Source of the DNA: an uncultured Gammaproteobacteria bacterium
GTDB taxonomy: Bacteria; Patescibacteriota; Patescibacteriia; Patescibacteriales; WJLG01
Assembly: GCA_964547855.1 (NCBI GenBank)
Contig: CAZJPG010000004.1
Coordinates: 1 to 54,050, forward strand
Length of the DNA: 54,050 nt
Direction: 5' to 3'
The position numbers and the translations under genes were made by a program. Positions 8,279 through 47,037 of this stretch are shown here, one piece after another; positions within the stretch are counted from its first letter, which is position 1, and the number at the start of each line of letters is the position of its first letter. A model generated the notes under the pieces. That model worked only from the letters and a program-made list of their open reading frames with translations. It was not told the origin of the DNA and made no database searches.

Positions 8279-8308
8279 TGTTTTTATTTCTAAAGCAGGG
8301 TAAGTAGA

Positions 8309-8337
8309 TTGACTACTAGGAAGAAAACCTTTAATAT
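8309..8337 (+). promoter_or_regulatory. Candidate sigma70 promoter for lepA
   Basis: TTGACT-17 bp-TAATAT. Confidence 0.45.
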
Positions 8338-8367
8338 TAGAAGATAAAGGTCAAAAAGACCTTTTTA

Positions 8368-10164
8368 TTGTCTTATTTCATGAAAAATATCAGGAATTTT
8401 TGCATAATTGCCCATATCGATCACGGAAAATCGACTCTTTCCGATAGAATGTTGGAGATGACGGGAACTATAGAAAAGCGCCGCATGAAGGAGCAGTTTT
8501 TAGATATGATGGATTTGGAAAGAGAAAGAGGTATCACCATCAAACTTAAGCCGGTATCCATGAATTTCAATGGTTACGAGATGAATTTGATCGATACTCC
8601 TGGACATGTGGATTTCTCTTATGAGGTTTCTCGCTCTTTGGCGGCGGTCGAAGGAGCTATTTTGCTTATCGACGCTACTCAAGGGATACAGGCTCAGACT
8701 TTGGCTAACTTGTATTTGGCCCTAAAAGAGGATTTGACGATTATCCCAGTAATAAACAAGATCGACCTGCCAGCTGCTGACATACCTAACACAAAGGCCG
8801 AGATAGTGAATTTGATTGGTTGCGATGAAAGTGAAATATTGTCCGCTTCTGGAAAGACTGGCGAGGGCGTTGAGGCCATACTAAAGGCTGTTATAGACAG
8901 GATCCCGCCGCCTACCGGCGATGAGGCTAAACCTACTAGGGCACTTATATTTGATTCTAATTATGATGAATATAAGGGTGTTGTGGCGCATATTAGGGTC
9001 GTTGATGGATCGTTCAAGAAAGGGGATAAGATAAAATTGCTCTCCAGTAAAACAGAGAGTGAAATTTTAGATATCGGCGTATTTAAACCAGACTATCATC
9101 CAACATCCGGTCTTTCCGCTGGTGAGGTCGGATATGTTATCACTGGCTTTAGGGATGTCTCGGAGTGCGGAGTTGGTGATACTGTAACTCTTTTGTCGGA
9201 TCTGGGTAAAGTCGAGCCGCTCAAGGGTTATGAGCAGGCGAAGCCAATGGTCTTTGCCGGTATTTTTCCGCGCGAAGGCAATGATTTCAAGGACCTTAGG
9301 GAGGCTATGGATCGTCTTAAGCTCAATGATTCTTCTTTGACCTATGAACCAGAAAGATCGGAGGCCTTGGGTTTCGGGTTCCGTTGTGGTTTTCTTGGTT
9401 TGCTGCATTTAGAGATATTCCAAGAGCGCCTTCGTCGCGAATTCAATCTTGATTTGATAGTCACCGTGCCAAGTGTAGCTTATAAAGTCTATAAGCGTGG
9501 GACTTTGGAAGAGATCACGGTTAGAACCCCGCAGAAATTGCCGTCTCTCGGAGAAGTCGATCGCATCGAGGAGCCGTGGGTGACCATGGATATCGTGGTG
9601 CCGAAAGAATATATCGGCAAGGTTATGGATTTGGCTCAAGAGAAAAGAGGAATTTATAAAAATACCGAGTATATTGACGAAAAGAGAGTGATCATACATT
9701 ATCAGATGCCGATGGCCTCAATCCTGACCGATTTTTATGATAAGATAAAGAGTGTCAGTTCTGGATACGCTTCGATCAATTATGAGTTTTTGGATTATCG
9801 TCCAGCTAAAGTGGTTAGGCTTGATATTCTAGTCGCTGAGGATATGGTCGAGGCTTTATCGGTTATAACCTACGAAGACGATGCTTATCGACGTGGACGC
9901 GAGATAGTCGAGACTTTGAAAGATTCATTGCCTAAGCAGATGTTCGTGGTCAAGATTCAGGCAGCTGTCGGCGGGAAGATCATTGCCGCTGAGCAGTTGT
10001 CAGCTATGCGCAAGGACGTTACGGCCAAACTTTATGGCGGCGACGTTTCCCGTAAAATGAAACTTTTAAAGAAACAGAAAGAAGGAAAGAAGAAAATGAT
10101 GCAAGCCGGCAAAGGTTCGGTCGAGATACCGCCGGAGACATTTGTAAAGATATTGAAGAAATAG
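8368..10164 (+). CDS. lepA: Elongation factor 4 (start probably ATG 8380)
   Basis: RNFCIIAHIDHGKSTL, DTPGHVDF, NKID, GFRCGFLGLLH, KDVTAKLYGGD. Confidence 0.97.
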   Translation: MSYFMKNIRNFCIIAHIDHGKSTLSDRMLEMTGTIEKRRMKEQFLDMMDLERERGITIKLKPVSMNFNGYEMNLIDTPGHVDFSYEVSRSLAAVEGAILLIDATQGIQAQTLANLYLALKEDLTIIPVINKIDLPAADIPNTKAEIVNLIGCDESEILSASGKTGEGVEAILKAVIDRIPPPTGDEAKPTRALIFDSNYDEYKGVVAHIRVVDGSFKKGDKIKLLSSKTESEILDIGVFKPDYHPTSGLSAGEVGYVITGFRDVSECGVGDTVTLLSDLGKVEPLKGYEQAKPMVFAGIFPREGNDFKDLREAMDRLKLNDSSLTYEPERSEALGFGFRCGFLGLLHLEIFQERLRREFNLDLIVTVPSVAYKVYKRGTLEEITVRTPQKLPSLGEVDRIEEPWVTMDIVVPKEYIGKVMDLAQEKRGIYKNTEYIDEKRVIIHYQMPMASILTDFYDKIKSVSSGYASINYEFLDYRPAKVVRLDILVAEDMVEALSVITYEDDAYRRGREIVETLKDSLPKQMFVVKIQAAVGGKIIAAEQLSAMRKDVTAKLYGGDVSRKMKLLKKQKEGKKKMMQAGKGSVEIPPETFVKILKK

Positions 10165-12783: not shown

Positions 12784-13713
12784 TTATTCTAAATCAGCCC
12801 GTAGGCCAAACCTAGTAATGTTAGCATCTGCAATGCTTTGTATATATTTTATCTCATCTTCTCCTTTTTGTGAAGTGAATAAGTGTTTGAAGCGAGCCTG
12901 GATCTTCAAATACTCTTCGACTGGTTTGAACTCTTTCATCTTGGACGAATTGACTAACTGACCATCGATGAACTCTAATTGCGGGTAAAGACCCGTTTGA
13001 ACGGCTAGCTTGCCAGCTTTCATAGCATCAGAAGGCTTTAATCCCCAACCAGGTATGCAAGGAGCCATTATCTGTATATAGGCAGGTCCTCCCATCTCCA
13101 AGGCTTTTTTAACTTTAGCAGTTATGTCCTGCGGGTATCCGGCGGTCGATTGAGCTACGTATTTCAAACCGTGAGCCAAGGCTATCCCGATCATGTCTTT
13201 TTTTCTTTGTGTGGAGCCGATAGACTCCTTTCCGGCCGGTGCGGTGGTAGTGGAAGCTCCAGCTGGAGTCGCTCCAGAGGCTTGATAGCCGGTGTTGGAG
13301 TATATCTCTGTGTCATAACAGATATAGACGACGTCGTCGCCACGCTCCCACATTCCTGATATTAGACCTATGCCGATATCGAATGTCGCGCCATCGCCAC
13401 CTTGGGCGATCACCTTAGTCTTTATTTCCTTGCCTCCTCGCTTGATTTTAGCGTCTAAGGCAGCTCGTATCCCAGAGGCTACGGCTGACGCATTTTCAAA
13501 TAAAGAATGTATCCATGGCACTTTCCAAGATGATTCCGGATAAGGAGTGGTGGTCACCTCACTACAGCCAGTGGCATTGGCGATAATGACGTCTGGTCCC
13601 ATGGCGCGAGTGGCGGCCATAGCCGACACCAATAATCCGCAGCCAGCACAGGCTCGGTGCCCAGAAGCGATCAGTACGTCGCCTTGTTTTAACTCTGTTT
13701 TGTTATTGTTCAT
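12784..13713 (-). CDS. porB: Pyruvate:ferredoxin oxidoreductase beta subunit (TPP-binding)
   Basis: GHRACAGCG, ATGC, GGDG, YSNTGYQ.SGATP, APCIPGW. Confidence 0.93.
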   Translation of the reverse strand: MNNNKTELKQGDVLIASGHRACAGCGLLVSAMAATRAMGPDVIIANATGCSEVTTTPYPESSWKVPWIHSLFENASAVASGIRAALDAKIKRGGKEIKTKVIAQGGDGATFDIGIGLISGMWERGDDVVYICYDTEIYSNTGYQASGATPAGASTTTAPAGKESIGSTQRKKDMIGIALAHGLKYVAQSTAGYPQDITAKVKKALEMGGPAYIQIMAPCIPGWGLKPSDAMKAGKLAVQTGLYPQLEFIDGQLVNSSKMKEFKPVEEYLKIQARFKHLFTSQKGEDEIKYIQSIADANITRFGLRADLE

Positions 13714-13725
13714 ATTTATTTTTTG

Positions 13726-14955
13726 TTATTCAACATGAAAATGATTTGCACTGGCATCTTTGTTGTATTTGCAGTTAGATGCTTCAGTATAGTAGTCACA
13801 ACAAGTTGGTCCGCTTGTGCACTCATATTGAAAGTTGGTCAGGTTCGCTGCCTTTAATTTTTTAGCCATGGTGTCGACTTTTGTTGGATCTTCGCTTTTG
13901 TCTGTAAAATTTAAATCAACACATCTGCCGTCTGTATGACATGGGTCTATGTGATGGTCTGTCGGTGGCCAAGCTTCGGTTACTTGCCAACCACTATAGG
14001 TCATATATATTGTTTTTAGCTTTTCGGCCATCTCTGGGGATGCTTTGCAGCTAGAAGCATTTTTGCACATTCCTAGATATATGTCTGTGCAATTATCACA
14101 TGCCTTACAATTTATTTTGTAATCATTTGGGCAGCCAGGTGGTATGGTCGGACAGCAGCAAGTTTGATTACTTCCTACGTTGGAGCCACATAATTTTACG
14201 GCAAGCAGGTTATTAGAACTTCCTGTAAGATCGATGGCTGAATAACTGTATTTAGTTTGGTTTTCTTGACAGGTATTATTTGCTGCCCAGGAGCAGCCAG
14301 GCTGTTGTTGATATGAACAGCAGCAAGCGTAGTTGTCGCCTGGTTTTTTTGTGGCTGCACAATCAGAATCGGTGCCGCTTGGCGTGTTTGGTGGACAACC
14401 AGTATTACCGGTCCCACTGGTTGTCTCTGATCCGGTTTTTACTTTTTGCGTCTCAGTCCAGGAGCAATTTTTTTCGGAAGAATTGGTACTGCTTTTCACG
14501 TCAAATTTCAGGCTCGTTACATTACTACTTAGATTAACCAGTGCAGGATTGACCTGTGATAGCACTATATACGATGTTAGAACTAATACCATGCCAGTAA
14601 TGGCGGCGAATATCATTTCCTTGGCCTCTCCGATCGAGGATGGGTTTCCTCCGGCCAATATCCATCTAAGGCCGCCGATCATAAGCATGACCGCAGCCAA
14701 GATGCCTACAGCTCCAACGGCGTAAGTATAGACGGATTTAACGTAGGCCGCGATTGGTGCGGTAGTCTTATCAAAGACGATGTCCTGGCCGATCGGTACG
14801 TTGGCTTTGAACGTCTCTTGGGCGTTGGCTATTTCTGGCGATGAAAAACTTCCGACAGCGGCAACTGTTTGAGCTGCGGCCAAAGCAACGAATACCCAGG
14901 CCATTAGGCGGGGCATTAATCTAAGCTTGGAAGTCTTATTTTTCTTTTTAGGCAT
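13726..14955 (-). CDS. VirB2/TrbC-like pilin fused to a Cys-rich linker and a Hedgehog-like/M15 Zn-peptidase domain
   Basis: Signal peptide; pilin motif GILAAVMLMIGGLRWILAGGNP..EAKEMIFAAITG; C-terminal VTEAW..DHH..H-TDGRCV-D..YE..HFH. Confidence 0.75.
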   Translation of the reverse strand: MPKKKNKTSKLRLMPRLMAWVFVALAAAQTVAAVGSFSSPEIANAQETFKANVPIGQDIVFDKTTAPIAAYVKSVYTYAVGAVGILAAVMLMIGGLRWILAGGNPSSIGEAKEMIFAAITGMVLVLTSYIVLSQVNPALVNLSSNVTSLKFDVKSSTNSSEKNCSWTETQKVKTGSETTSGTGNTGCPPNTPSGTDSDCAATKKPGDNYACCCSYQQQPGCSWAANNTCQENQTKYSYSAIDLTGSSNNLLAVKLCGSNVGSNQTCCCPTIPPGCPNDYKINCKACDNCTDIYLGMCKNASSCKASPEMAEKLKTIYMTYSGWQVTEAWPPTDHHIDPCHTDGRCVDLNFTDKSEDPTKVDTMAKKLKAANLTNFQYECTSGPTCCDYYTEASNCKYNKDASANHFHVE

Positions 14956-15012
14956 AAGCGCGGTAGTAGTAAATATTTTTTAGGGATTTGATAAAGCGTT
15001 TTTCTGTCCATG

Positions 15013-15068
15013 CTTTATACATGATACTTAATACTTCATGCAAAAAGTATAATGTATAAAGTATAATG
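15013..15068. repeat. Inverted heptamer-periodic repeats
   Basis: ctttatacat-gatactt-aatactt ... aagtata-atgtata-aagtata; ctttatacat pairs with atgtataaag. Confidence 0.6.
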
Positions 15069-15111
15069 CCCGATGCGTGTAAAGATTTGAAAATTTATCG
15101 TTTTTGTTACT

Positions 15112-16320
15112 TTATTTACCAAGCCAAATATCTTCCTCTCCGCCAGGGATGGATTTTTCCAATATCGTTTCAAAGGTTTCAGCATTAATATCTCGTCCGC
15201 CAAGCCCGACGACAAAGCTTTTAACTGAAGAAAAACCTTTATTCAATAAGGAAGACCGAACTTCCAAGGCTAGAGGGGCAGTCGCTCCTAAAGATGCATC
15301 TTTTTCGACTACGGCTACATTTTTGGCTCCGAATTTTTTCAAGGCTTCGGCTATCTCTTCTCCTGGCCATGGGCGCATAGTTCTTATTTTTAATACTCCG
15401 ACTTTGCCTTTGCCTCCGGAGAACATTCCACTTGGCGCTTTTTTATTGGCTTTATCAGCGGCATCCTTCGCCGTTCCAGCCAAAGAACCCATGGTGATTA
15501 TGACTTTTTCAGCCTTTGCTGGTCCGTAGTATTCAAGTAGGCCAGTATCCAAAAGAACGTCTTTGCATTCTTTGCACAAAGTTTTGAAAGCCTTTTTGTA
15601 TTTTTGGTACTCTTCGTTTATGAGCTTTTTAGAGTCGATGATATTTTCATGAGCTTCTTTTCTTATCTCGAAATAATGCGCCGGAGTGGCTAAGGCACCC
15701 AAGGTTCTAGGATTCTCTGGGTCTAAGTAGCTGCCTTTTTTTGGTTTGTAGGTTGGCAAGAATTTTTGCACATCCTTTTCTTCTGGTAGTATAACCTCCT
15801 CATAAGAATGAGTAAGCACGAAGCCGTCGACATTCACGATGGCTGGGGCCATTATTTTCTCGGCGACCTTATAGGAAATGATGTGCTGCATGACCGCTTC
15901 TTGGTGATTCTCGGAGAACAATATTAAAAAGCCAGCATCGCGGATGGCCATGATGTCTTGTTGGTCGTTCCATATACTGATCGGGGAGGAAATGGCACGA
16001 TTGGCGCAAGTGATAACGGCCGGCAACCTCATACCAGCAATGTTGTATAACACTTCGGTCATCAACAATAATCCTTGTGAGCTGGTCGAGGTATATACTC
16101 TTTCGCCGGTAGCACTGGCACCTAGTATTATCGAAGCGGCTGCGAATTCGCTTTCGGCACGCAAGTATTCATAGTCGGCTTCACCATCGGCCTTAAAGCG
16201 AGCCAGATCTTCAACGATGTGCGTTTGCGGGGTTATTGGGTAGGCCGAAATGACCGTTGGCTTGATCGCTTTGATGGTCAAGGCGATGGCACGAGACCCT
16301 TCGAGTATTTGAGGTTTCAT
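15112..16320 (-). CDS. porA: Pyruvate:ferredoxin oxidoreductase alpha subunit
   Basis: AYPITPQT, ESEFAA, TSTSSQGL, NRAISSP. Confidence 0.94.
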   Translation of the reverse strand: MKPQILEGSRAIALTIKAIKPTVISAYPITPQTHIVEDLARFKADGEADYEYLRAESEFAAASIILGASATGERVYTSTSSQGLLLMTEVLYNIAGMRLPAVITCANRAISSPISIWNDQQDIMAIRDAGFLILFSENHQEAVMQHIISYKVAEKIMAPAIVNVDGFVLTHSYEEVILPEEKDVQKFLPTYKPKKGSYLDPENPRTLGALATPAHYFEIRKEAHENIIDSKKLINEEYQKYKKAFKTLCKECKDVLLDTGLLEYYGPAKAEKVIITMGSLAGTAKDAADKANKKAPSGMFSGGKGKVGVLKIRTMRPWPGEEIAEALKKFGAKNVAVVEKDASLGATAPLALEVRSSLLNKGFSSVKSFVVGLGGRDINAETFETILEKSIPGGEEDIWLGK

Positions 16321-16327
16321 AGTTTAA

Positions 16328-16400
16328 TTGAATATTGAATACTGAATTATGAATTCAGAATTTTATTTTTATATTTATGATTCACTATTCACTATTCAGT
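16328..16400. repeat. Inverted heptamer tandem arrays
   Basis: ttgaata ttgaata ctgaatt atgaatt cagaatt ... attcact attcact attcagt. Confidence 0.75.
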
Positions 16401-16418
16401 TTTTCGTAAAAACAAGAA

Positions 16419-16682
16419 TTATTTTTTCTCCAGTTCCATGGCAATGCATTTGACTGGGCACTCTTCGGCACAGAGGCCGCAGCCTTTGCAATAATCATAA
16501 TTCGTCTCTGGTCTTTGGCCCTTTTCAGTATCTTTCATTTTTATGGCATTGTCAGGACAGACCCTGGCGCAAGTGCCACAACCAATGCATTTTTCTTGAT
16601 CGGTCTTGGGGATGAAAGTTCTCCAGTCGCCGGTCTTATTGTTCATGGTCGAACCGGGGGCGACCGTTAGATCTATAGTCAT
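16419..16682 (-). CDS. porD: PFOR delta subunit (2x[4Fe-4S] ferredoxin)
   Basis: KTGDWRT, CIGCGTCARVCP and CKGCGLCAEECP. Confidence 0.93.
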   Translation of the reverse strand: MTIDLTVAPGSTMNNKTGDWRTFIPKTDQEKCIGCGTCARVCPDNAIKMKDTEKGQRPETNYDYCKGCGLCAEECPVKCIAMELEKK

Positions 16683-16694
16683 ATTTGTTTTTAA

Positions 16695-17255
16695 TTAAGA
16701 ATGATAAGCTCTTTCCAGGGCCTCTATATTCTTTTTGATTATCTCTTCGCCTTTTTCTTCGAATTTTTCCTCAATAGCTTTCTTTAACCCCTCAATGCTT
16801 AAAAGTCCGTCCAGTTTTGCCAAAGCTCCAAGAATGGTCGTGTTGGAAAGGTTTTTGCCAAAGATTTCCATAGCTATCTTGGTGGCGTCCACTGGGTAGA
16901 TGTTTCCGGCTGGAACGGATTTTTTATCTTGTCCGTAGGTTAATTTTATTTCTTCCTTAGGCTTTGAGGTGTTCACTACTACGATAACGTTCTCGTCGCA
17001 ATCGGCAGTTGGATTTAAGCCTACTAAGGTTGGGTCGAGTATTATTAAAATATCAGGACTGGATACTTGCTCTCTGGTGCGTATGAAATTTTCGTCTATG
17101 CGGGCAAAGGCCTGAATAGGCGCGCCAGTACGCTCAACGCCAAAGGAAGGAAAGGCTTGCGATTGTTTGCCGTCTTTGTAAGCGGCGATAGCTAGCAATT
17201 CGGCGGCCGTGACCACTCCCTGACCACCGCGGCCATGCAATCTGATTTGTTTCAT
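16695..17255 (-). CDS. porG: PFOR gamma subunit
   Basis: IRLHGRGGQGVVT, FPSFGVERTGAP, NTTILGA. Confidence 0.93.
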   Translation of the reverse strand: MKQIRLHGRGGQGVVTAAELLAIAAYKDGKQSQAFPSFGVERTGAPIQAFARIDENFIRTREQVSSPDILIILDPTLVGLNPTADCDENVIVVVNTSKPKEEIKLTYGQDKKSVPAGNIYPVDATKIAMEIFGKNLSNTTILGALAKLDGLLSIEGLKKAIEEKFEEKGEEIIKKNIEALERAYHS

Positions 17256-17261
17256 ATTCGA

Positions 17262-17924
17262 TTATTGTTTTTGATTTAAAATTAGATTTATGATCTTCTC
17301 CCAGTTGTCGAGCGGGATGTCGCCAGCCACCCTATATCCATTGACGAAGAAGGTTGGTGTGCCAGCTACGCCAAGAGTCTGTCCGTCAGCTGCGTCTTTT
17401 TGTATTTGAATCATTACGTCGCCACTTTCTAAGCAGTCTGAGAAATCTTTTTTGTTAGCCCCGACGCTAACGGCGATATTCGGTAGGCTGGAAAGATCGA
17501 AATTTCCTTGATTGGCGAATAATTTATCGTGCATCGCCCAAAAAAGACCTTGTTTGCCGGCACAGCGAGCGGCAATGGCAAGTTGGTCGGAGTTTTCATG
17601 TACGGGATAATCCTTAAAGACGATCTTAACGCTGTCTTTATATTTTATTCCTATTTGCCTGATTTTGGAGTGTGACTCTTTGCAGTATGGGCATTCGAAA
17701 TCAGAGAATTCGACGATAGTTATTTTAGGTTTTTCGGACCCAAACCAGAAGTCGCCCTCGATCGGGACGGTAGAAGTCTCGGTTTGTCTTTCTATCTTTT
17801 TAGAGATGTCCGATTCGTTGTCCGCACCATCTTGCGGTCCGATGAAATAAACGATAATCGCGCAAATCAATATGATCAGACCGAAAACTATCAAGGCGAT
17901 ATTTTTCTTGCTCGGTTTTTCCAT
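17262..17924 (-). CDS. Membrane-anchored DsbA-family thiol-disulfide oxidoreductase
   Basis: N-terminal TM; EFSDFECPYC; GTPTFFVNG. Confidence 0.9.
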   Translation of the reverse strand: MEKPSKKNIALIVFGLIILICAIIVYFIGPQDGADNESDISKKIERQTETSTVPIEGDFWFGSEKPKITIVEFSDFECPYCKESHSKIRQIGIKYKDSVKIVFKDYPVHENSDQLAIAARCAGKQGLFWAMHDKLFANQGNFDLSSLPNIAVSVGANKKDFSDCLESGDVMIQIQKDAADGQTLGVAGTPTFFVNGYRVAGDIPLDNWEKIINLILNQKQ

Positions 17925-17961: not shown

Positions 17962-17990
17962 ATTATAACATTTTTAATCTATGTCTCCAA
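17962..17990 (-). promoter_or_regulatory. Candidate promoter for the dsbA-por operon
   Basis: Minus strand TTGGAG-17 bp-TATAAT with TG extension. Confidence 0.55.
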
Positions 17991-27285: not shown

Positions 27286-27954
27286 GTGGATATTTTAAAG
27301 AAATTTCGGGCGGAGAATTCTGCCTCGGAAAGCAATCTTAGTAGTAGTCAAAAGCTGGCCGTTTTCGGGCTAGCTATTTTGGGTATAACGACGATGATCT
27401 TTTGGGCGATCGGAATGAAGAATAACATATACCGCCCATTGGAGCCGAAGAGTAATGAGGCATCGAATGCGACTTGCCCGAATGGAAATTGTTCAGGCGT
27501 TGCCGATCAAACGAAATCGCAAGACACGGACCAAGATGGATTGTCGGATTGGGATGAGACTAATGTCTATGGCACGTCTCCATATATAGAAGACACTGAT
27601 AGCGATGGCATAAAAGACGGTGACGAGATCGCTCTTGGCACCGACCCCAATTGTCCTGCTGGGCAGGATTGTTCCGGTGCATCATCTGTTATCGAATCGA
27701 ATGTTACTACTGGCAACACTTCAGAAGATTCGACTATGCCAGATTCTCTTAATTTGAGTAAAGAGCAAGTCGAGGCTAATCAAGATGCGATCAACCAAGC
27801 GTTCACAGGTCAGGCAGATGCCAAAACATTAAGAGAGTTATTGAAAAAATCAGGTATGCCACAAGATATTTTAGATCAGATGACGGATGATCAGATAATG
27901 GCAGCCTATTTATCAACTTTAGAGTCCGCTACTTCCAATCAAACTGGAAATTAA
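27286..27954 (+). CDS. Single-TM protein with bacterial TSP3-like Ca-binding repeats
   Basis: DTDQDGLSDWDE and DTDSDGIKDGDE motifs; N-terminal TM; Cys pairs. Confidence 0.75.
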   Translation: MDILKKFRAENSASESNLSSSQKLAVFGLAILGITTMIFWAIGMKNNIYRPLEPKSNEASNATCPNGNCSGVADQTKSQDTDQDGLSDWDETNVYGTSPYIEDTDSDGIKDGDEIALGTDPNCPAGQDCSGASSVIESNVTTGNTSEDSTMPDSLNLSKEQVEANQDAINQAFTGQADAKTLRELLKKSGMPQDILDQMTDDQIMAAYLSTLESATSNQTGN

Positions 27955-38802: not shown

Positions 38803-41325
38803 ATGCTCGATTTTATAAAAAACAAATTTCAATCGTTAACGAAGAACAAGAAGACTGTCGTGTCTTTTTGTTTGGTTTTTGTTTTATTCGCTTTATTGGT
38901 ATGGTTTGGGACCGATGTTGTTTGGGCGGCATCAAATGATAATAACATTGCCGCTGGTGAGAAGACGGCTGGGATCATAGCTATAATCATAAGTACGATC
39001 GCCGGGTGGTTGATAAATATTTTTGGTGCTATTTTTTCGTCTATTTTGAACGTGGTCGTGGCCGTTGCTAATTACAATGATTTCTCCAATGCCCAGGCAA
39101 TAGTTCTTGGCTGGGTGGTCGTACGCGATATTTGCAACATGTTCTTTATACTGATCTTGTTGGTCATAGCCTTCGCCGTGATATTGCGTATCGATGGATA
39201 TGATGTCAAAAAAATGATCCCGAAGTTGCTGATCATGGCTGTGTTGATAAATTTTTCCAGAACGATCTGTGGTTTGATAATCGATGCGGCTCAAGTAGTG
39301 ATGTTGACCTTTATTCATAGTATAAAGGGGATGGGCGGTCATTTGGTGGACATGTTTGGAATTAAGGATTATCAGACGTTCAGTAAGGACAGTAAGGGAA
39401 ACCCGAATTCCGGACAGATAGTCGTTGCCTCTGTTTTGGCTATAATTTTCATGTTGATAGCTACGGTTGTCGTTATTGCTTTGTTGGGAGTATTGGTCAT
39501 GAGAATAATCATGCTTTGGATATATGTCACTTTGTCGCCGTTGGCGTTTTTCTTAGCCTCGTTTCCGCAGGGAAAGAAATATTCTCAAAAATGGTGGAGT
39601 GAATTTTCCGAGAACGTTATCGTCGGCCCAGTTTTGGCATTTTTCCTTTGGCTTTCTTTTGCCACTTTGGGAAGCGTCACCGATGGCAGCAAATTGTTAG
39701 GACCAGATGTAGATCTTTCCAGCGGTTCGCCAAGTGGTTTAACAGGCATACTTTCCGGCTCTAATGTCATGAAATTCGCTATATCCATCGGCATGCTTTT
39801 AGGTGGCTTAATGATATCGTCTAGCATGGCCGGAGCGGCTGGAGGGTTTGCTGGTAAAGCCATGGGCAAGATACAGGCCGGCGCTGCTTGGACTAAACGC
39901 AAAACTTTGGGTGCGGCAAAAACAGCCGCAGTGGCTACTGGTGGGGCGGCTTTGGGTGTGGCAGCTGTCACTGGTAAGTCACTCGATCGTTTTGGTGGGG
40001 GGATGGTAAATGCTGGCTTGAAAAAAGCAGGTTTGTCCAAGGGGAATAATAGCATATTGGCCGACCGTGGATTGATTGGTGGGAGTTTTTCTGCAGTTAG
40101 GGGTGGAACTTCCAATCTCATGGCTAAAGTGAAAGAGACTATCTCTAAAAACAGGACATTGAATGATGATATATACCAATCTCAATTTAATAAGGACGGC
40201 ATAGTTGAGCATAGAGGAGAAAAATATAAAGTTAATAGCTCTGGAGAGTATCAACGCATAGATGATAAAGGAAATCATGTTTCACCAACCGAAGCCAATG
40301 CTTTCTTGACCAATGCTGACGGTAAGAGAGTGAAGAAAGGCGCCATGAATAGCTTTGCCATCCAAGCCTTTAAGAGGTCGATGAGAGAGGCTACTTCTGG
40401 TTCAAGGGCAGCCTCCAACGCTCTTGAGGAAAAAAATATTGAAGAGGCCAAAAATAAGATCAAAACATCTGGCATGTCTAATGAAGAGGCGCGTCGTCGT
40501 ATGGAAAGCTCCGGGACCACTGCTATCGAGAAAAAGGCTTTGGTTATGCATTTGGCTGAAGAGAAAGGCTTTGAGAGCATAGACCAAAGAGAAAGAGCTC
40601 AAAAAATCCTTGGCGGCAACGAGTCATTGGTTAAAAAATTCGGTGATACGGTGGTCAAAAATCAGGTTCATTTGGCATATAATTTGAACGCCGTGGACAA
40701 AAAAGGTAATCCTGACACTGATAAGCGCGCGCTGGAGCGAAATAGAATGATGAAAGATTTGTCCAAGAATAATATTGATGTGCGTAATTTGTCGAAAGAG
40801 GCTATTGGGGACACGGCCTTCATGGATGCGGTTCATGACTGGGCCGGTGATTCCAAATTCTCCAATATTATGAAGGCCAACGCTGAGGCGGGTGGCAAAA
40901 AGAATCAGGAGAATGTCGTCAATGCTTTGTCTAGAAAAGTTGACAGAACAAAACTAAAGACAGATAAATTCGCAAAGATTCAAGCTGATATAAGCGGCGA
41001 TCTTTCTCTGGCATTCAATTTGCAAAACGATGGAAAAGGTGGAGTTGATACTGCTGCCGTAGCTCAATATTTGGCGACCGCGAAACCAAAGCAGCTCGAA
41101 TCAATTGACAATGATGCTATGGATAAATTAATGAATGTTTTATCTGGTTCACAGAGAACCGGAATACAGAATGCTATAGGAAAGAGTGTGTCGTATGCTC
41201 AAATAAAAAGCATATATAAATCTGGTAATCAAGAATTAGCCAAACGTCTCAAAGATGATATTCTTAATATTGGAGGCAACGCAGCCGTTGATATTCGTGG
41301 AGATGCTGAATTGATGTCGCTTTAA
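38803..41325 (+). CDS. TrbL/VirB6-like T4SS membrane protein with a long soluble C-terminal extension
   Basis: GWVVVRDICNMFFILILL.IAFAVIL, LLIMAVLINFSRTI...IIDAAQ, R.IMLW...LSPLAF; Gly/Ala-rich linker. Confidence 0.75.
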   Translation: MLDFIKNKFQSLTKNKKTVVSFCLVFVLFALLVWFGTDVVWAASNDNNIAAGEKTAGIIAIIISTIAGWLINIFGAIFSSILNVVVAVANYNDFSNAQAIVLGWVVVRDICNMFFILILLVIAFAVILRIDGYDVKKMIPKLLIMAVLINFSRTICGLIIDAAQVVMLTFIHSIKGMGGHLVDMFGIKDYQTFSKDSKGNPNSGQIVVASVLAIIFMLIATVVVIALLGVLVMRIIMLWIYVTLSPLAFFLASFPQGKKYSQKWWSEFSENVIVGPVLAFFLWLSFATLGSVTDGSKLLGPDVDLSSGSPSGLTGILSGSNVMKFAISIGMLLGGLMISSSMAGAAGGFAGKAMGKIQAGAAWTKRKTLGAAKTAAVATGGAALGVAAVTGKSLDRFGGGMVNAGLKKAGLSKGNNSILADRGLIGGSFSAVRGGTSNLMAKVKETISKNRTLNDDIYQSQFNKDGIVEHRGEKYKVNSSGEYQRIDDKGNHVSPTEANAFLTNADGKRVKKGAMNSFAIQAFKRSMREATSGSRAASNALEEKNIEEAKNKIKTSGMSNEEARRRMESSGTTAIEKKALVMHLAEEKGFESIDQRERAQKILGGNESLVKKFGDTVVKNQVHLAYNLNAVDKKGNPDTDKRALERNRMMKDLSKNNIDVRNLSKEAIGDTAFMDAVHDWAGDSKFSNIMKANAEAGGKKNQENVVNALSRKVDRTKLKTDKFAKIQADISGDLSLAFNLQNDGKGGVDTAAVAQYLATAKPKQLESIDNDAMDKLMNVLSGSQRTGIQNAIGKSVSYAQIKSIYKSGNQELAKRLKDDILNIGGNAAVDIRGDAELMSL

Positions 41326-41337
41326 TTTTGTTTTTAA

Positions 41338-42441
41338 ATGAATATTTTTCAACAAAAATTGAATAAATTACCAAAAGAAGTGGCGTCGTTTTTGGTATCA
41401 ATGGAGGCTGTTAAGCTGAATAAGGAGGTTTGTGGTAAATATGGATTAAAAGGCGACCAGGTGGACAAATATGTTAATTTAGTCAGTTCTCTATTTTTTA
41501 AAGAGGTTTCTTTAGATGAGCTCGTGAAGACTGTGTCTTCTTTGTTTGGTTTTGATAATTTCAAGGCTAATGAGATGTCGAAGGACATTGCTGGTATTAG
41601 GCTTTTGGTTGTAAAAGATTGGGTTGCCGGAGTTAAGGAGTATATTGAATCACTGAATGGAAAAATTGAAGATTATGCGCCTTACGTTGAGAGACAAAAA
41701 AAGGCTCTAGAAGATGAGGACAAGTTCTTCAAAGAGGCAATGGCTGAAGAGTCTCTGGATGATCAAAAAGACTCTGATAAAGAAAAAGATTCTGCGGTTA
41801 ATCGCAGTGTTGTCGAATTTGATATTACAAAGGAAAAAAATGACAGTGTTAATAATTTTAAAGAATCTGTTTTAGAGTTGCTGGATTCAGACAACGAGCC
41901 TTTAGCTGATGAGTATAATGGTATTTTGCTGCAAGTTCTTATCGATGGCGGTGTTTCCGCTAAGGTCGATTTGGAAAAAGCTTTGTATGAGAATCAAGAA
42001 CGTTTGACCTCGGCCCCATTCATGCTTGATGGCAAAGTGTCTTCTGGTACTGTTGCTAATTGGATAAAATATTTTATCTCTATAAAAGGCACAGGGATTT
42101 TTGATAATATAGTTTTGTCTTCGTTCTTAGTCCAGTCACCTAACGCCAAGGCTTTGAGCGAAGTAGAAAAATCTCGTTTGCGCAAATTGCTGCTCTTGTA
42201 TCGTAATTTGAAATTTTTTCCGGAAAGCATGCCGAATAATACCGGCGAAGGTTGGGAGATAATACCTACACAGGTCACCGAAGAAGTCCAAAGAGAGGTT
42301 AAGGTCGTTCAAGAGAAGAAGGATTCTGAAAATGAAAAAAAGATCCAAGAGTTGCGAGCGACTCTAGCTAAATATCCAGAAGGAAGTTTGGCCAGAAGGG
42401 CCGTGGAAGAGGAGATCAAGAGAGTAAAAAGTCAAAAGTAG
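41338..42441 (+). CDS. Hypothetical protein
   Basis: 367-aa ORF within the operon; N-terminus KLNKLPKEV..FLVS.E. Confidence 0.75.
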   Translation: MNIFQQKLNKLPKEVASFLVSMEAVKLNKEVCGKYGLKGDQVDKYVNLVSSLFFKEVSLDELVKTVSSLFGFDNFKANEMSKDIAGIRLLVVKDWVAGVKEYIESLNGKIEDYAPYVERQKKALEDEDKFFKEAMAEESLDDQKDSDKEKDSAVNRSVVEFDITKEKNDSVNNFKESVLELLDSDNEPLADEYNGILLQVLIDGGVSAKVDLEKALYENQERLTSAPFMLDGKVSSGTVANWIKYFISIKGTGIFDNIVLSSFLVQSPNAKALSEVEKSRLRKLLLLYRNLKFFPESMPNNTGEGWEIIPTQVTEEVQREVKVVQEKKDSENEKKIQELRATLAKYPEGSLARRAVEEEIKRVKSQK

Positions 42442-42525
42442 AAGTAGAGAATTTGTTTTTTGATATTAATAAGAGAACTTTTGATTTCACGATAAGTCTA
42501 TTCATTTTTAACTTTTAACTTTTTA
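42425..42525. repeat. Inverted heptamer-like repeats
   Basis: aaaagtc-aaaagta-gaagta ... tttaact-tttaact-tttt. Confidence 0.5.
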
Positions 42526-42534
42526 TTTAATACT

Positions 42535-43917
42535 GTGCTTGAATACCTTGATAAATTCACTAAGTTGCCGGCAGATATTCAACAGAAGGCTTCCAGCCAG
42601 GAGGTCCTTTTAGCGTTAGATGAGTTATCTTCTCGCTATAATGTCGATCTAGCATCCTTTGTCATGAGGGTGATGGTCGGCGATTTGATGTATCGCAATA
42701 TGCTGGCTAGCTTGATCAAGGAATTCGACATGGAGCTCGATCAAGCCGAATTGCTGGAGGCCGAGCTTCGTGATCGTGTCTTTAAGAAGGTACAGGATTA
42801 TTTGCTTGGCACAGCCAAGCCAGAGCCAGCCACTGAAGAAGAAATTAAGGAAGTCGAAACTGTCGTCGAAAAGGCCGAGAAAGAGGAAATAAATATTAAA
42901 AAGTTGCCAGAAGGTGAGGAAGAGAAGCTTTTAATGGCCCCTAAAAATGATCTAGATGAAAAGAAAGTAAAAAGTGTTCCGGTTGAAAAACCGTTAGTCG
43001 CCGAAGAAGAGAAAGAGATAACTGAAATTAAGAAAAAAATGCCAGTTGGCCAAGAAACCGAGGCCGACAGGTATTCCCGCGTAGCGGCTGATGTCCTTGA
43101 GGAGTCTGGCCTTAATATGCCAAGCGAAGGATTGAATTTGCGTTTCAAGCAGATAATGATCACATATCTTAAGGGTATACGTACGAAGATCGAGACCAGA
43201 GAGACGATGACTAAACCAGTTATAAGTGGTGGTCTTAATCTTGATAATCCGGAAGTAGAGAGAATTATCGCTATTGCCAATAAAAAATTAGCTGAAGAGA
43301 ATAAGAGGGCTCCTTTGGGAAAAGTTAAAATAGAGGAAGGCCCATCAGGATTCGTCTTTAAGAAAGAAGAAATAGCCGAAGCCTTGGGTAAAGTTCCTCC
43401 AAAACCTAAGGATGAAAAAGGAATGACCATGACTGGCGAGGAATATGATTTGGCAGCAGAGATAAAGAAGGGTAATGTTTCCGCTTCAGCGTCAGCTTCC
43501 GCGTCGACCCCAAAACAACAACCAGAGACCACACAAAGGAAGGCGAAGGTAGTCGGTGGAAAAAAGGCCATGGACGATATCAAGACGCCGCAGATAATGA
43601 GTCCGATAGACGAACTGGCCTATATGGATCTTGTCACCTTCCGTCGATTAGATAGTGACCCAGTGCGACGTTGTAAAAAGATAGAGGATAAAATCGGTCT
43701 TTTGGCCAAGGAGGGCATCGATCGCCAGCTTGAAGGTATCAAAGCCTGGCGCTTGAATCCGGTAAATAAAACTTACATATCAATGGGTCAGGATAGTATA
43801 ACGCAAGGCAAGGGGATTGATGATATAATAGTTGACCTTAAGAACAAAGGCTTTAATTATCTGACTAGGGTCGAATTCGAGGCGATAATGGATCTTAATA
43901 ATAGATTGCGATTTTAA
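42535..43917 (+). CDS. Hypothetical protein
   Basis: GTG start; N-terminus KFTKLPADI..KASS.E; low-complexity linker; stop overlaps the prgI ATG. Confidence 0.75.
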   Translation: MLEYLDKFTKLPADIQQKASSQEVLLALDELSSRYNVDLASFVMRVMVGDLMYRNMLASLIKEFDMELDQAELLEAELRDRVFKKVQDYLLGTAKPEPATEEEIKEVETVVEKAEKEEINIKKLPEGEEEKLLMAPKNDLDEKKVKSVPVEKPLVAEEEKEITEIKKKMPVGQETEADRYSRVAADVLEESGLNMPSEGLNLRFKQIMITYLKGIRTKIETRETMTKPVISGGLNLDNPEVERIIAIANKKLAEENKRAPLGKVKIEEGPSGFVFKKEEIAEALGKVPPKPKDEKGMTMTGEEYDLAAEIKKGNVSASASASASTPKQQPETTQRKAKVVGGKKAMDDIKTPQIMSPIDELAYMDLVTFRRLDSDPVRRCKKIEDKIGLLAKEGIDRQLEGIKAWRLNPVNKTYISMGQDSITQGKGIDDIIVDLKNKGFNYLTRVEFEAIMDLNNRLRF

Positions 43918-44372
43918 TGCAAATGTTCACTGTTCCGCAGTTCATAGACGCGGAAGACAAAATAATAGGAGCGATGACGGTTAGGCAATTCGTTATTTGC
44001 CTAGCTGGTGTGGCCGTGATCGGAATTGGTTGGAAAATATTCGATTTTTCTTTGTTTGTCGTTTGGGGTATTGGTAATTTAGCGGTGTTTGGAGCTTTTG
44101 CTTTTGTTAAAGTCAATGGTCGCCCTTTTCATTATTTTGTGTTGAATGTGGTCCAGACATCAAAAAAACCACGCTTAAGAGTTTGGAATCATAGAAATCC
44201 TTTGAAGGACGTGGTGTCTTCGGAGGACGACAAGGGAGAGGCCGTTCACACTGCAGCCAAGGTCGTTCCAGTGAAGCCTCATCCAGCGGGGTCGCGTTTG
44301 AGAGAACTTTCTTTGATCGCCGACACCAAGGGTGCCTATAAGGGTGGAGAGGGCGAAGAGATAGTCGAATAA
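43917..44372 (+). CDS. PrgI-family (VirB3-like) protein
   Basis: F.VPQFIDAEDKIIG.MTVRQF, two TMs, K.NGRPF. Confidence 0.85.
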   Translation: MQMFTVPQFIDAEDKIIGAMTVRQFVICLAGVAVIGIGWKIFDFSLFVVWGIGNLAVFGAFAFVKVNGRPFHYFVLNVVQTSKKPRLRVWNHRNPLKDVVSSEDDKGEAVHTAAKVVPVKPHPAGSRLRELSLIADTKGAYKGGEGEEIVE

Positions 44373-44405
44373 TTTAAAAAAGGAAAGTCAAATTATATTG
44401 TTTCT

Positions 44406-45092
44406 ATGGCAGAAAGGAAAAATGAACTAGCAAAGGGGAGAATAAGCGTTTCGACGCAGCAGTTTTTGGATATCGCTGAGATTAAGGACGATACAGTGGT
44501 TATGCGCGACGGTACGGTGCGTGCCGTTCTTTTGGTCTCTAGTATTAATTTTGCCTTGAAGAGCGAAGAAGAACAGGATGCTATTGTCGGATCGTATGTT
44601 GGTTTTTTGAATAATATAAATTTTCCCGTGCAAATAGTCATTCAGTCGCGTCGTTTGAATATAGATAACTACATAAACGAACTAAAGAAGAAAGAAAAGG
44701 AACAGACTAACGAACTCCTCAAGATGCAGACGACTGAGTATATAAATTACATACAAGAGATCGTTCAGCTCGGCGACATCATGAGCAAGAGTTTCTATAT
44801 CGTCATTCCGTACAATCCATTGTCTGATAAGCACAAAGGATTTTTTGCCTCCATGCAAGAAGTCTTCAAGCCAGCTTCGGTCGTAAGGATGAAAGGCAAG
44901 CGTTTCGAGCGTTATAAGTCAGAGCTACAGCGCCGTCTTGAGAGTATCCAATCTGGCATGCAGTCCGCAGGATTAAAGACGGTTCGCTTGGATACCCAGG
45001 GTTTAATAGAGCTTTATTATACGACCTATAATCCCGATACGGCTGAAAACCAAAAGCTGACCGATATAAAGAATTTAAGGGTAGTAGGTTAA
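44406..45092 (+). CDS. T4SS-associated protein (TraC/VirB4 N-terminal-like)
   Basis: STQQFLDIAEIKD, VSSINF.LKSEEEQ, FLN..NFP.QIVIQSR; lies between prgI and the ATPase. Confidence 0.65.
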   Translation: MAERKNELAKGRISVSTQQFLDIAEIKDDTVVMRDGTVRAVLLVSSINFALKSEEEQDAIVGSYVGFLNNINFPVQIVIQSRRLNIDNYINELKKKEKEQTNELLKMQTTEYINYIQEIVQLGDIMSKSFYIVIPYNPLSDKHKGFFASMQEVFKPASVVRMKGKRFERYKSELQRRLESIQSGMQSAGLKTVRLDTQGLIELYYTTYNPDTAENQKLTDIKNLRVVG

Positions 45093-45126
45093 ATATAGGC
45101 GTTACGCTTTTTGCGTTACGTGTTAT

Positions 45127-47037
45127 GTGATTATGATAGATTTAAAAAAGGCCAATTTAGAACAGAAAAAACCGGTCAAAGATGAAGACGACGTAGAACT
45201 ACCTGAAAAGGAGAATGTGATGTATGTCGAGGAGTTAATCGAAGAGGAGCGGGCTTTTAGGCGTGGAGTTTTATCGATCATCGATCTGATCTCTCCGGCG
45301 GCCATGGAAGTCACCCCGGATCATATTCGCCTGGGCGGCAAATTCGTACGCACGCTTTTTATTATTGGTTATCCGAGATATATCAGTGTCGGGTGGTTCG
45401 CGCCAATAATAAATATGAATGAAGTCTTTGATGTATCTATGTTCTTCTACCCGGTCAAGACCTCTATAATATTGAAACAGCTTAAGAAAAAAGTCGGCGC
45501 CTTGGAAGCGCAGATCATCGGTGACGCCGAAAAAGGAGCTGCTCGCGATCCATTGGCCGAGACCGCTTTGAAAGATATTGAATATTTGCGCGATGCCTTG
45601 ACTCAGGGCATAGAGAAATTTTTTCAATTTTCTCTATACGTGAGCCTTTACGCCGATACCAAGGAAGACCTCGATAAATTTTCCGATCGAGTCGAGGATA
45701 TATTCGGTTCAAGATTGGTGTACTCGAAAAAAGTTTTCTTTCAATCGGAGCAAGGATTTAATTCTACAGTCCCATTGTGCAACGATGAATTGTACATAAC
45801 TTTCAACATGAATTCCTCTCCGGCAGCCTCGTCCTTTCCATTCATTTCGTCCGACCTAACCTCTGATCATGGTATTCTTTACGGAATAAATCGCCACAAT
45901 AATAGCTTGATATTGTTTGATCGCTTCTCTTTGCAGAATGCCAATACACTTGTCTTCGCTACTTCTGGTGCTGGTAAAAGTTACTGTATAAAATTAGAGA
46001 TATTACGTTCCCTTATGATGGGTGCTGACGTTATAGTCATTGATCCGGAATATGAGTATAAACATTTATGCGAATCCGTCGGTGGAACGTATATCAACAT
46101 TTCGCTATCCAGTGAAGAGAAGATAAATCCTTTCGATCTGCCTCGCTCCATGGGTGGCAAATCGAAACCGGGAGATATTATCCGCGGTGCCGTTATTACT
46201 GTTAAAGGTTTGGTGAAGTTGATGCTTGGCAGTCTTGATCATACCGAAGATTCGATCGTTGATCGCGCTTTATTGGAGACATATGCCAAGAAAGACATTA
46301 CTCCAGACGCCGATCTGTCCAATGTCGAGCCGCCGATAATGTCGGACTTTCAAGAGGTCTTAGAGGGTATCGAAGGCGGGTCTGATTTGGCGCAGAGATT
46401 AAAGAAATACACCGAAGGAACTTTCGCTGGTATTCTGAACTATCCGACTAATGTCAAAATGAACAATCAGCTCGTCTGTTTCTCGGTTCGCGACTTGGAG
46501 GACGAATTAAGACCTTTGGCTATTTATACTATAGTCAATTATATTTGGAATATAGTTCGTTCTGAGCTCAAGAAGAGGATATTGGTTATCGATGAGGCTT
46601 GGTGGTTGATGCAGAGCGAGGATAGTGCCAAGTTCATTTATGCGCTAGTCAAGCGTTGTCGTAAATATTATCTCGGTGTCACTACGATCACTCAAGACGT
46701 CAACGACTTTTTGTGTTCGCCTTATGGTCAAGCCATAGTCACCAACTCATCCTTGCAAATGTTGCTGAAGCAGTCTCCGGCCGCCATAGATCTGATTCAA
46801 AAGACCTTTGCTTTGACCGAGGGTGAGAAATATTTATTACTAGAATCCGGAGTCGGCGAAGGAATAATGTTTGCTGGCAATAAGCACGCTGCTATTAAAA
46901 TCGTCGCTTCTTATACGGAAGACCAGCTCATAACTACCGACCCCAGGCAGTTATTGGAGATCGAGGAAGCTAAGAAGGAGTTCGCCGCTTCACAGGACCA
47001 AGGAGAGGGTACACCGGTTTTGGATATGCCTATTTAA
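45127..47037 (+). CDS. VirB4-like T4SS ATPase
   Basis: Walker A ATSGAGKS, IDPEYEY, INPFD, Walker B LVIDEAW, RKY..G..TITQD.NDF. Confidence 0.9.
   Translation: MIMIDLKKANLEQKKPVKDEDDVELPEKENVMYVEELIEEERAFRRGVLSIIDLISPAAMEVTPDHIRLGGKFVRTLFIIGYPRYISVGWFAPIINMNEVFDVSMFFYPVKTSIILKQLKKKVGALEAQIIGDAEKGAARDPLAETALKDIEYLRDALTQGIEKFFQFSLYVSLYADTKEDLDKFSDRVEDIFGSRLVYSKKVFFQSEQGFNSTVPLCNDELYITFNMNSSPAASSFPFISSDLTSDHGILYGINRHNNSLILFDRFSLQNANTLVFATSGAGKSYCIKLEILRSLMMGADVIVIDPEYEYKHLCESVGGTYINISLSSEEKINPFDLPRSMGGKSKPGDIIRGAVITVKGLVKLMLGSLDHTEDSIVDRALLETYAKKDITPDADLSNVEPPIMSDFQEVLEGIEGGSDLAQRLKKYTEGTFAGILNYPTNVKMNNQLVCFSVRDLEDELRPLAIYTIVNYIWNIVRSELKKRILVIDEAWWLMQSEDSAKFIYALVKRCRKYYLGVTTITQDVNDFLCSPYGQAIVTNSSLQMLLKQSPAAIDLIQKTFALTEGEKYLLLESGVGEGIMFAGNKHAAIKIVASYTEDQLITTDPRQLLEIEEAKKEFAASQDQGEGTPVLDMPI

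Follow-up and report, generated by a model that had tools for sequence, protein, structure and literature searches.

We describe here a gene from an ultra-small bacterium of the Patescibacteria (Candidate Phyla Radiation, CPR), which lies on the minus strand at 13726..14955 of a 54,050-nucleotide stretch of contig CAZJPG010000004.1 (positions 1 to 54,050, forward strand; assembly GCA_964547855.1; this whole stretch is called the window below) and which encodes a protein joining a VirB2-like pilin anchor to a C-terminal domain with the Hedgehog/DD-peptidase fold. We think it rather probable that this pilin-peptidase fusion is an exported, membrane-tethered, disulfide-stabilised zinc peptidase, which, at the outer face of the membrane, cleaves the peptides of peptidoglycan for the Patescibacterial type IV secretion system (T4SS) or its pilus; by analogy, it could in effect be a VirB2-like anchor doing a VirB1-type job.

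Patescibacterial T4SSs are MPF-FATA-like and, unlike those of their Gram-positive relatives, have VirB2-like pilins, which are found in most of them and often in arrays, while a recognisable VirB1 hydrolase is mostly missing (PMC12102498). In the one strain tested, Candidatus Southlakia epibionticum ML1, the T4SS is essential for epibiotic growth, its cluster SEML1_0006-0019 being described as essential (Wang et al. 2023, PMC10633639). A widespread family with a predicted wall-cutting domain on its pilin-like anchor offers a concrete and testable answer to where the missing T4SS hydrolase is, and the fusion architecture questions whether Patescibacterial 'pilins' are filament subunits at all. 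The fusion is a variant within known kinds (Hedgehog/DD-peptidases, T4SS wall hydrolases and CPR pilins) and not a new category; bacterial Hedgehog relatives (bacHh), and a Hedgehog/DD-peptidase domain beside virB4 in a cultivated Saccharibacterium (SEML1_0007), are already known. Of the pilin-peptidase fusion itself, and of the family of its domain (here 'TEAWPP', after a motif), there is no mention in the papers that we found. The domain is small, disulfide-rich and expressible, which makes it straightforward to assay.

The Hedgehog-like C-terminal domain and its anchor

The open reading frame (ORF) begins with ATG, ends with the stop codon at 13726-13728 and encodes 409 amino acids; it lies exactly where a preliminary description, made from the DNA letters, had placed it. 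The motif strings quoted in that description are present: W323-QVTEAWPPTDHHIDPCHTDGRCVD-347, Y377-E378 and H405-F406-H407 were checked by position, and T326, E327, W329, H334, H335, H340, D347, E378, H405 and H407 were each verified by program. Read from the N-terminus, the protein consists of a signal peptide, a VirB2-like two-helix hairpin, a disordered spacer, a Cys-rich module and a 130-residue C-terminal domain, whose coordinates, given in brackets below, are all on the minus strand.

The C-terminal domain (residues 280-409; 13729..14118), which we assign to the TEAWPP family as a predicted zinc peptidase domain of the Hedgehog/DD-peptidase fold (M15A-like), gave marginal matches when searched as a single sequence: the HH_signal family (PF01085) was found at E 0.025 (14.8 bits, against a cut-off of 22.1), and chains of Sonic hedgehog (Shh) in the PDB at E of about 0.06, although all 22 of the PDB sequences listed were Hedgehog. 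Such scores might be taken to mean that the Hedgehog likeness is a chance or compositional match, or that the ORF is not a real gene. We give that reading next to no probability, as it is refuted by two profiles with different members, by hhalign, by a confident model with all-Hedgehog top matches, and by the approximately 1,000 homologous clusters and the conserved synteny described below. The first profile (alignment A1, 19 C-terminal domains drawn from 48 homologues) had, up to E<=10, matches to 24 distinct PDB sequences, every one a Hedgehog N-domain, the best at 1.9e-7; the second (alignment A4, 35 members from an exhaustive search, partly overlapping A1) also found Hedgehog only, the best at 3.9e-7, and no M15 enzyme was among the PDB matches at E<=10 with either profile. 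Aligned to the human Shh N-domain (ShhN) by hhalign, A1 gave a probability of 94.4% and an E of 9e-8 over 69 aligned columns.

The AlphaFold2 (AF2) model of the domain, built on A1, is a confident one, with a predicted local distance difference test score (pLDDT) of 93.3 and a predicted template modelling score of 0.88. When it was compared with the PDB by Foldseek, the top 17 matches were all Hedgehog structures (probability 0.98-1.00; query-normalised template modelling score 0.46-0.60, and 0.54-0.60 for vertebrate Hedgehogs), and the M15B enzymes LdcB (VanY-like) and VanXY ranked behind Hedgehog with lower probability; in the Foldseek viral library, phage 'Peptidase M15A C-terminal' proteins were matched with probabilities up to 1.0. 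The Hedgehog/DD-peptidase fold that the preliminary description had claimed is thus borne out by profiles, hhalign, model and Foldseek. The order of secondary structure (helix, strand QVTEA, short helix CHTD, strand CVDLN, helix, strand FQYEC, Cys-rich insertion, strand HFHV) maps one-to-one onto the ShhN core, approximately residues 100-190. The domain has the same alpha/beta sandwich core as the Hedgehog N-domain (HhN, PF01085; 'Hedgehog/DD-peptidase' in ECOD), with helix, VTE-x-W, H-x6-D, helix, Y-E and H-x-H in that order, and of all solved structures HhN comes closest to it, in profile searches and in Foldseek alike.

The predicted active site is likewise in register with that of Shh (residue numbering after PMC6027127 and general knowledge). 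Within residues 324-347 (QVTEAWPPTDHHIDPCHTDGRCVD; 13915..13986), the hidden Markov model (HMM) and hhalign registers place T326-E327 on Shh T126-E127, H335 on H135, H340 on the zinc ligand H141 and D347 on the zinc ligand D148. E378 (13822..13824), aligned to the 'YYE' of Shh, corresponds to E177, the catalytic general base, which in M15 peptidases is likewise a Glu. H405-F406-H407 (13735..13743), on the last beta-strand (strand E126-129 of the domain model), would supply the third zinc ligand as Shh H181/H183 do; this match to H181-I-H183 rests on topology, the HMM alignments ending before the Cys-rich insertion. All of these Shh residues have counterparts in the query, and the H-x6-D and H-x-H pointed out in the preliminary description, together with the catalytic Glu, do correspond to H141/D148, H181-H183 and E177.

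Across 157 representative domains (50% non-redundancy), the conservation of these positions is 94% for T326, 92% for E327, 98% for P330, 96% for H335, 97% for H340, 100% for D347 and 99% for E378, and it is 81% for H405 and 51% for H407. Across the family, the sequence of the last strand is HFS or SFH where it is not HFH as in the query, in an either-or pattern with Ser in place of the missing His; at least one His is there in nearly all members, and the metal-binding His of this strand may differ between subfamilies.

How close the relationship to Hedgehog is can be judged from what is absent. The 'possible bacterial relative of Hedgehog' of the preliminary description stands at the level of the superfamily and goes no further: identity to HhN is about 29% over the 69 columns and the match is below the Pfam cut-off; of the Shh calcium ligands only E127 has a counterpart (E327), P330 and T332 standing in the places of D130 and D132; and, as the alignment starts near residue 100 of Shh, nothing corresponds to the N-terminal lobe of HhN (approximately 75 residues, with the calcium ligands E90/E91/D96). 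Unlike HhN, the query has a Cys-rich insertion, 20-25 residues long, which separates its Glu strand from its H-x-H strand, and, unlike Hedgehog, it forms the C-terminus of a membrane protein from a bacterium, with no Hint/autoprocessing domain.

The M15 peptidases (clan MD; M15A/PF08291, VanY, LdcB of M15B and phage M15 endolysins) share the fold and the H-x6-D ... E ... H-x-H predicted zinc site. Their SG[YF]R substrate-binding motif, including its Arg, is however replaced by TE-A-W-PP in the query, as it is in Hedgehog; judged by what is generally known of M15 enzymes, such a replacement suggests an endopeptidase rather than a carboxypeptidase specificity.

The anchor lies at the other end of the protein. 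Residues 1-45 (14821..14955), a Lys-rich n-region followed by a hydrophobic helix, form a probable Sec signal peptide, which is probably cleaved at the A-N-A motif at residues 43-45. Residues 63-140 (14536..14769) form the two-helix membrane hairpin of VirB2/TrbC type, with a short loop AGGNPSSIGEAKE. Hydropathy gives three hydrophobic segments (16-37, 74-103 and 113-140) and AF2 three helices (13-37, 66-100 and 105-135), which fit a signal peptide plus two helices joined by a short loop. The T4SS_pilin family (PF18895) matches residues 73-131 at E 7.2e-7, with 29.6 bits against a cut-off of 26.6 and an alignment spanning model positions 10-67 of 71; the protein is a member of that family above the curated cut-off, and its description as having a VirB2-like pilin N-terminus holds. 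Foldseek with the full-length model gave generic helical-hairpin matches only and no pilin structure. The hairpin is the best-conserved part of the protein, with nearly invariant columns.

Between anchor and peptidase lie a Ser/Thr/Asn-rich spacer (residues 141-163; 14467..14535), which is predicted to be disordered (pLDDT <50 for residues 142-160) and is not alignable across orthologues, and the Cys-rich middle module (residues 164-275; 14131..14466), defined from cysteine positions and alignment A3. This module contains two CCC triplets (C211-213 and C266-268), its AF2 model is beta-rich and of moderate confidence (pLDDT 57-77), a Pfam search assigned it to no family, and it also stands alone behind the pilin hairpin in four homologues (P0026, P0027, P0029 and P0033). 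The 'Cys-rich linker' noticed earlier is real, all 24 cysteines of the protein being found between residues 164 and 395.

A CPR-wide family with exchangeable heads

The TEAWPP domain is a large CPR-wide family of about 1,000 clusters at 50% identity, which is unnamed and has no Pfam model. The 48 homologues that we collected are all from Patescibacteria or metagenomes; the cluster of the protein itself is on a 79-kb contig. In an exhaustive HMMER search, which covered 1.84 billion representatives, the number of proteins found was 998 at E<=1e-3, and 622 at the stricter E<=1e-10; a profile search of a 5.8-billion-protein index with A1 added one new protein only. In GTDB, a scan with the single domain sequence found nothing; the 8-sequence alignment A2, with the pattern [IV]TEAWPPT, found 23 loci, biased to canonical TEAWPP members, from Saccharibacteria, Paceibacterota, Wolfebacteria, Moraniibacteriota, Falkowbacteria and others, including a few metagenome-assembled genomes labelled otherwise. 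A tblastn search of the domain against 50,697 phage records gave no match. Searched against Pfam, the consensus of the 157 sequences found no family (the best, DUF5715, at E 0.027), and an NCBIfam search gave nothing meaningful.

The family signature is [IV]TE[AGS][WYF]PPT-x2-H-x3-CH-x2-G-x-C-x-D ... [YF]E ... H/S-F-H/S, which in the query reads TEAWPP...CHTDGRCVD. No M15 model of Pfam, Peptidase_M15_3 (PF08291) included, matched either the query or the 157-sequence consensus; two representatives on the same scaffold (P0005 and P0020) do carry the canonical M15_3 motif 'TSGxR...SNHxxGNAVD' and match PF08291 at 1e-7, so that the TEAWPP family, to judge from its motifs, borders on M15A/PF08291. 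When searched alone against PDB sequences, P0005 found no match, and as this member with the M15_3 motif finds no Hedgehog chain, the similarity to Hedgehog resides in the TE-x-W/H-H half of the domain. The earlier reading of VTE-x-W and the upstream His as specifically Hedgehog-like holds as well, the PDB sequence matches of the family being to Hedgehog chains only. Natural variants such as these (TE-x-W versus SG-x-R on one scaffold, or HFH, HFS and SFH) could help to settle whether the zinc groove of Hedgehog is a peptidase site.

The family widens the bacterial side of the Hedgehog/DD-peptidase superfamily. The bacHh proteins, known from Rhizobium, Bradyrhizobium and others, share more than 50% identity with ShhN across some 145 residues and have every zinc and calcium ligand in common with it (Roelink 2018, PMC6027127), and Shh has been placed in a calcium-binding M15A subgroup (PMC8052667). 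Like the query, bacHh has its Hedgehog/DD-peptidase domain at the C-terminus, behind transmembrane (TM) segments and thus outside the cytoplasm (PMC6027127); its anchor, however, consists of three TM segments and not of a T4SS pilin hairpin. It is known from about a dozen species, compared with the approximately 1,000 clusters of the TEAWPP family across Patescibacteria, which is far more divergent from ShhN than bacHh and lacks the calcium site.

The association of domain and anchor is a property of the family. The pilin hairpin is found N-terminal of the domain in 145 of 156 domain-bearing representatives (93%) and in 24 of the 25 loci that were fetched. The linker between the two has a median length of 53 residues in the family, versus 145 here, owing to the extra Cys-rich module, and there are giant representatives of 1622 aa (P0054) and 1464 aa (P0125).

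The same pilin scaffold carries other C-terminal heads: SLT (P0045), SLT_3 (P0011 and P0034), 3D (P0037) and a VanY-like domain (P0048). At one locus (L001), the immediate neighbour of the Hedgehog-like pilin is an SLT_3 pilin, and SLT is the catalytic domain of VirB1. Our main argument for reading the Hedgehog-like domain as a muralytic enzyme is that these other heads on the same scaffold are known wall hydrolases.

A further, unassigned H-x-D/H-x-H domain was seen on this scaffold, at the C-termini of seven representatives (P0009, P0012, P0013, P0021, P0028, P0030 and P0031), with the motif string 'ISSISDS ... CHYG ... AVD ... E-x-NHIH-[IV]-S'; from this string it looks like another LAS-type zinc peptidase, with no Pfam match and, for P0012, no match among PDB sequences. 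We also observed tandem Hedgehog-like pairs, in which a short protein of 173-178 aa, with a single TM segment and a TEAYPP domain of its own, is encoded directly after the pilin-peptidase gene (L013, 8474-9010; L020, 8275-8796; L022, 7851-8375).

Genomic context and proposed function

In eight of the 25 related loci (L005, L011, L015, L016, L017, L021, L023 and L024), which include other CPR classes, the pilin-peptidase gene lies in a T4SS context. There, PrgI-TraC(N)-VirB4 are followed first by a small TM protein, then by a secreted one of about 330 aa and lastly by the pilin-peptidase, which is 1.2-1.6 kb downstream of virB4; two of these clusters adjoin yidC/rnpA, and that of L016 also dnaA. 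The window has a T4SS cluster of its own on the plus strand (38803..47037, assigned by Pfam), comprising a VirB6/TrbL-like gene (38803-41325), a PrgI/VirB3-like gene (43917-44372) and a split VirB4, with a TraC-N ORF at 44406-45092 and a P-loop ORF at 45127-47037. This cluster is without a pilin gene, as a pilin-hairpin HMM scan of all ORFs in the window found no other pilin-like gene.

We propose a role with the T4SS because the hairpin is so regularly present in the family, because of the virB4 neighbourhood in these eight loci, because the cluster in the window has no other pilin, and because of what is reported of Patescibacterial T4SSs (PMC12102498, PMC10633639). The closest precedent is SEML1_0007 of strain ML1, which is encoded beside a VirB4-like gene and of which a C-terminal domain, residues 951-1105, has been assigned to ECOD 'Hedgehog/DD-peptidase' on the template Shh 6N7G chain C, with probability 0.993 (PMC10633639, Table S2). 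That protein is likened to the query by its ECOD assignment; it has more than 1,100 residues and is not annotated as a pilin fusion, and the giant representatives mentioned above demonstrate that architectures of such a size exist in the family. Alike in their proposed job, local opening of the wall for a T4SS, are the VirB1-type hydrolases (VirB1 with its SLT domain; PrgK, TraG of pIP501 and TcpG in Gram-positive systems), and T4SSs of monoderms as a rule have muralytic proteins that are membrane-anchored and composed of several domains (PMC12102498). The VirB1-type proteins are, however, lytic transglycosylases or CHAP enzymes, whereas the query is a predicted zinc peptidase on a VirB2-like pilin anchor.

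A sequence of steps may be envisaged for the protein. The N-terminal signal helix would direct it to export by the Sec pathway; the hairpin would then insert with its short loop in the cytoplasm, as in the topology of VirB2/TraA, leaving the C-terminal 270 residues outside. That all 24 cysteines lie in this C-terminal part is consistent with the outside location, which we propose because every Cys comes after residue 164 and because the pilin gene is conserved together with a DsbA gene. The latter heads the same gene string, and its DsbA-like product, likely the oxidative-folding partner of the 24-Cys exported part, would form the disulfides. H340, D347 and the H405/H407 strand would hold Zn2+ and E378 would activate water, with H335 assisting, in the manner of H141, D148, H183, E177 and H135 of ShhN and of the M15 enzymes. 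The T4SS or pilus could then pass where peptide stems or cross-links had been cut locally, in the wall of the cell itself and possibly in that of a host, as architecture and neighbourhood suggest.

In the window itself the gene is placed within the operon of a 2-oxoacid:ferredoxin oxidoreductase, porG-porD-porA-[pilin-peptidase]-porB (12784..17255, minus strand; Pfam POR, Fer4, POR_N/PFOR_II and TPP_enzyme_C), with gaps of 156 nt to porA and 12 nt to porB. The DsbA-like thiol:disulfide oxidoreductase (17262..17924, minus strand; Thioredoxin_4 and DSBA matches) is the first gene of this same-strand string. The order DsbA-porG-porD-porA-[pilin-peptidase]-porB-RNase H-RecJ is found in the window and in L001, L002, L004, L008 and L010, and the same wedge between porA and porB occurs in two further contigs from the Joint Genome Institute (JGI), while in L014 and L019 the pilin-peptidase gene comes after porB; in all seven of these L loci, the DsbA and pilin genes are conserved together. 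The por context has a syntenic neighbourhood of RNase H, RecJ, LepA and MurJ. The sole good promoter-like site on the minus strand (17989..17962) is just upstream of dsbA; a minus-strand scan of the 156-nt gap upstream of the pilin-peptidase gene found no promoter, with weak candidates there only by eye. We rejected the idea that the gene came with a mobile element or by recent transfer, since GC content and skew are unremarkable and synteny is conserved. A gene for a cell-surface protein is, oddly, kept inside a central-metabolism operon, across relatives in which porA is only 49-81% identical.

Alternative readings

Several observations weigh against the T4SS-associated wall peptidase that we favour. 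The gene lies 24 kb from the T4SS genes of the window, inside the por operon, a position which would also suit a housekeeping autolysin. In syntenic orthologues the hairpin (48-76% identical) is about as conserved as porA, and the peptidase head is 34-46% identical; in the closest relative, L008, porA is 81%, the hairpin 76% and the peptidase domain 36% identical, the head there (gene 7269-8423) being another subtype. This suggests head swapping or diversifying selection on the peptidase head, and a fast head on a slow anchor is a pattern to be expected of modules for surface recognition or conflict more than of a fixed assembly factor. The first zinc ligand is lost in some orthologues (CQYDG in L008/P0007, AQYDG in L019, Tyr in P0014), and catalysis is therefore not universally required. 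To our knowledge, moreover, Hedgehog itself has no accepted peptidase substrate.

The reading preferred in the preliminary description is that the fusion is a host-directed weapon or tool, which is polymerised into the T4SS pilus or displayed on it and cuts host or prey peptidoglycan at the contact site. We think this somewhat unlikely. A C-terminal module that is swapped or diverges fast among close relatives on a conserved anchor is typical of host-facing or polymorphic modules, and display is topologically possible, as the C-terminus of the pilin is on the outer face of the filament in F-pilus structures. Patescibacteria are, besides, largely epibionts, with a T4SS which has neither a relaxase nor a coupling protein and without which there is no epibiotic growth (PMC10633639, PMC12102498). 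However, an appendage of 270 residues on each subunit may clash with the packing of the filament, and no immunity-type gene follows, the next gene being porB here and that of a 414-422-aa membrane protein in the T4SS operons. A polymorphic toxin/immunity pair was rejected as there is no candidate immunity gene downstream. A bolder form of the host-directed idea, which we hold to be quite unlikely, is that the T4SS pilus is 'enzymatically armed' with interchangeable wall-degrading heads (Hedgehog-like, SLT and 3D) which bore through host peptidoglycan at the epibiont-host junction, and that the TEAWPP family is the deep bacterial stock of the zinc groove of Hedgehog and bacHh (TE-x-W, H135); if this were true, animal Hedgehog would be linked to a contact-dependent bacterial cell-wall tool.

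The position of the gene in the window would, on the other hand, suit a housekeeping autolysin, in which the hairpin is merely an anchor and the enzyme remodels the cell's own wall in growth or division, independently of the T4SS. The conserved place in or next to the DsbA-por operon, in seven loci and the two JGI contigs, with its syntenic neighbourhood, the absence of a composition anomaly and the single promoter-like site at the head of the operon all agree with this; we nevertheless judge it unlikely, because the orthologous architecture lies inside a virB4 operon in other CPR classes, because the anchor is a bona fide T4SS_pilin member as conserved as porA, and because rapid turnover of the catalytic domain, with loss of a zinc ligand in the nearest relative, ill fits an essential housekeeping enzyme. 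It might also be that the domain does not cut at all, and that its Hedgehog-like zinc groove binds glycan, peptidoglycan or a host protein as an adhesin tip, much as Hedgehog signals through partners bound at its zinc groove. Hedgehog ligands are indeed its nearest solved relatives, a minority of the family lacks the first zinc-ligand His, and the strand of the third ligand varies, but we consider a pure binding module very unlikely: the catalytic positions are intact here and in 96-100% of representatives, including the Glu and H335, which binding would not need, and the slot is otherwise held by the enzymes SLT, SLT_3 and 3D.

Some further features of the window and its relatives may be recorded. 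A VirB4 in two ORFs also occurs in L005, L011, L015-L017, L021, L023 and L024, where the tblastn matches are about 100-180 nt apart; in the ORF listings of L005 and L016 the P-loop ORF begins after the match of the N-terminal part. Two genes after VirB4 in the window there is a second DsbA-like paralogue (47721-48464, plus strand), membrane-anchored like that heading the pilin/por operon, and two DsbA paralogues fit a heavy use of disulfides in the surface proteins of the organism. A small protein bearing a bacterial TSP3 repeat (27286-27954) comes before a giant 2,757-aa ORF (27971-36244) for which Pfam gave no match; equivalents of this ORF, 2,683-2,742 aa long, are found in the same place in related contigs. 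At 2113-4812, an 899-aa fusion joins an ADP-forming acetyl-CoA synthetase-like part (CoA-binding, succinyl-CoA-ligase-like and ATP-grasp) to a C-terminal GNAT acetyltransferase, a domain set that resembles Pat-type protein acetyltransferases.

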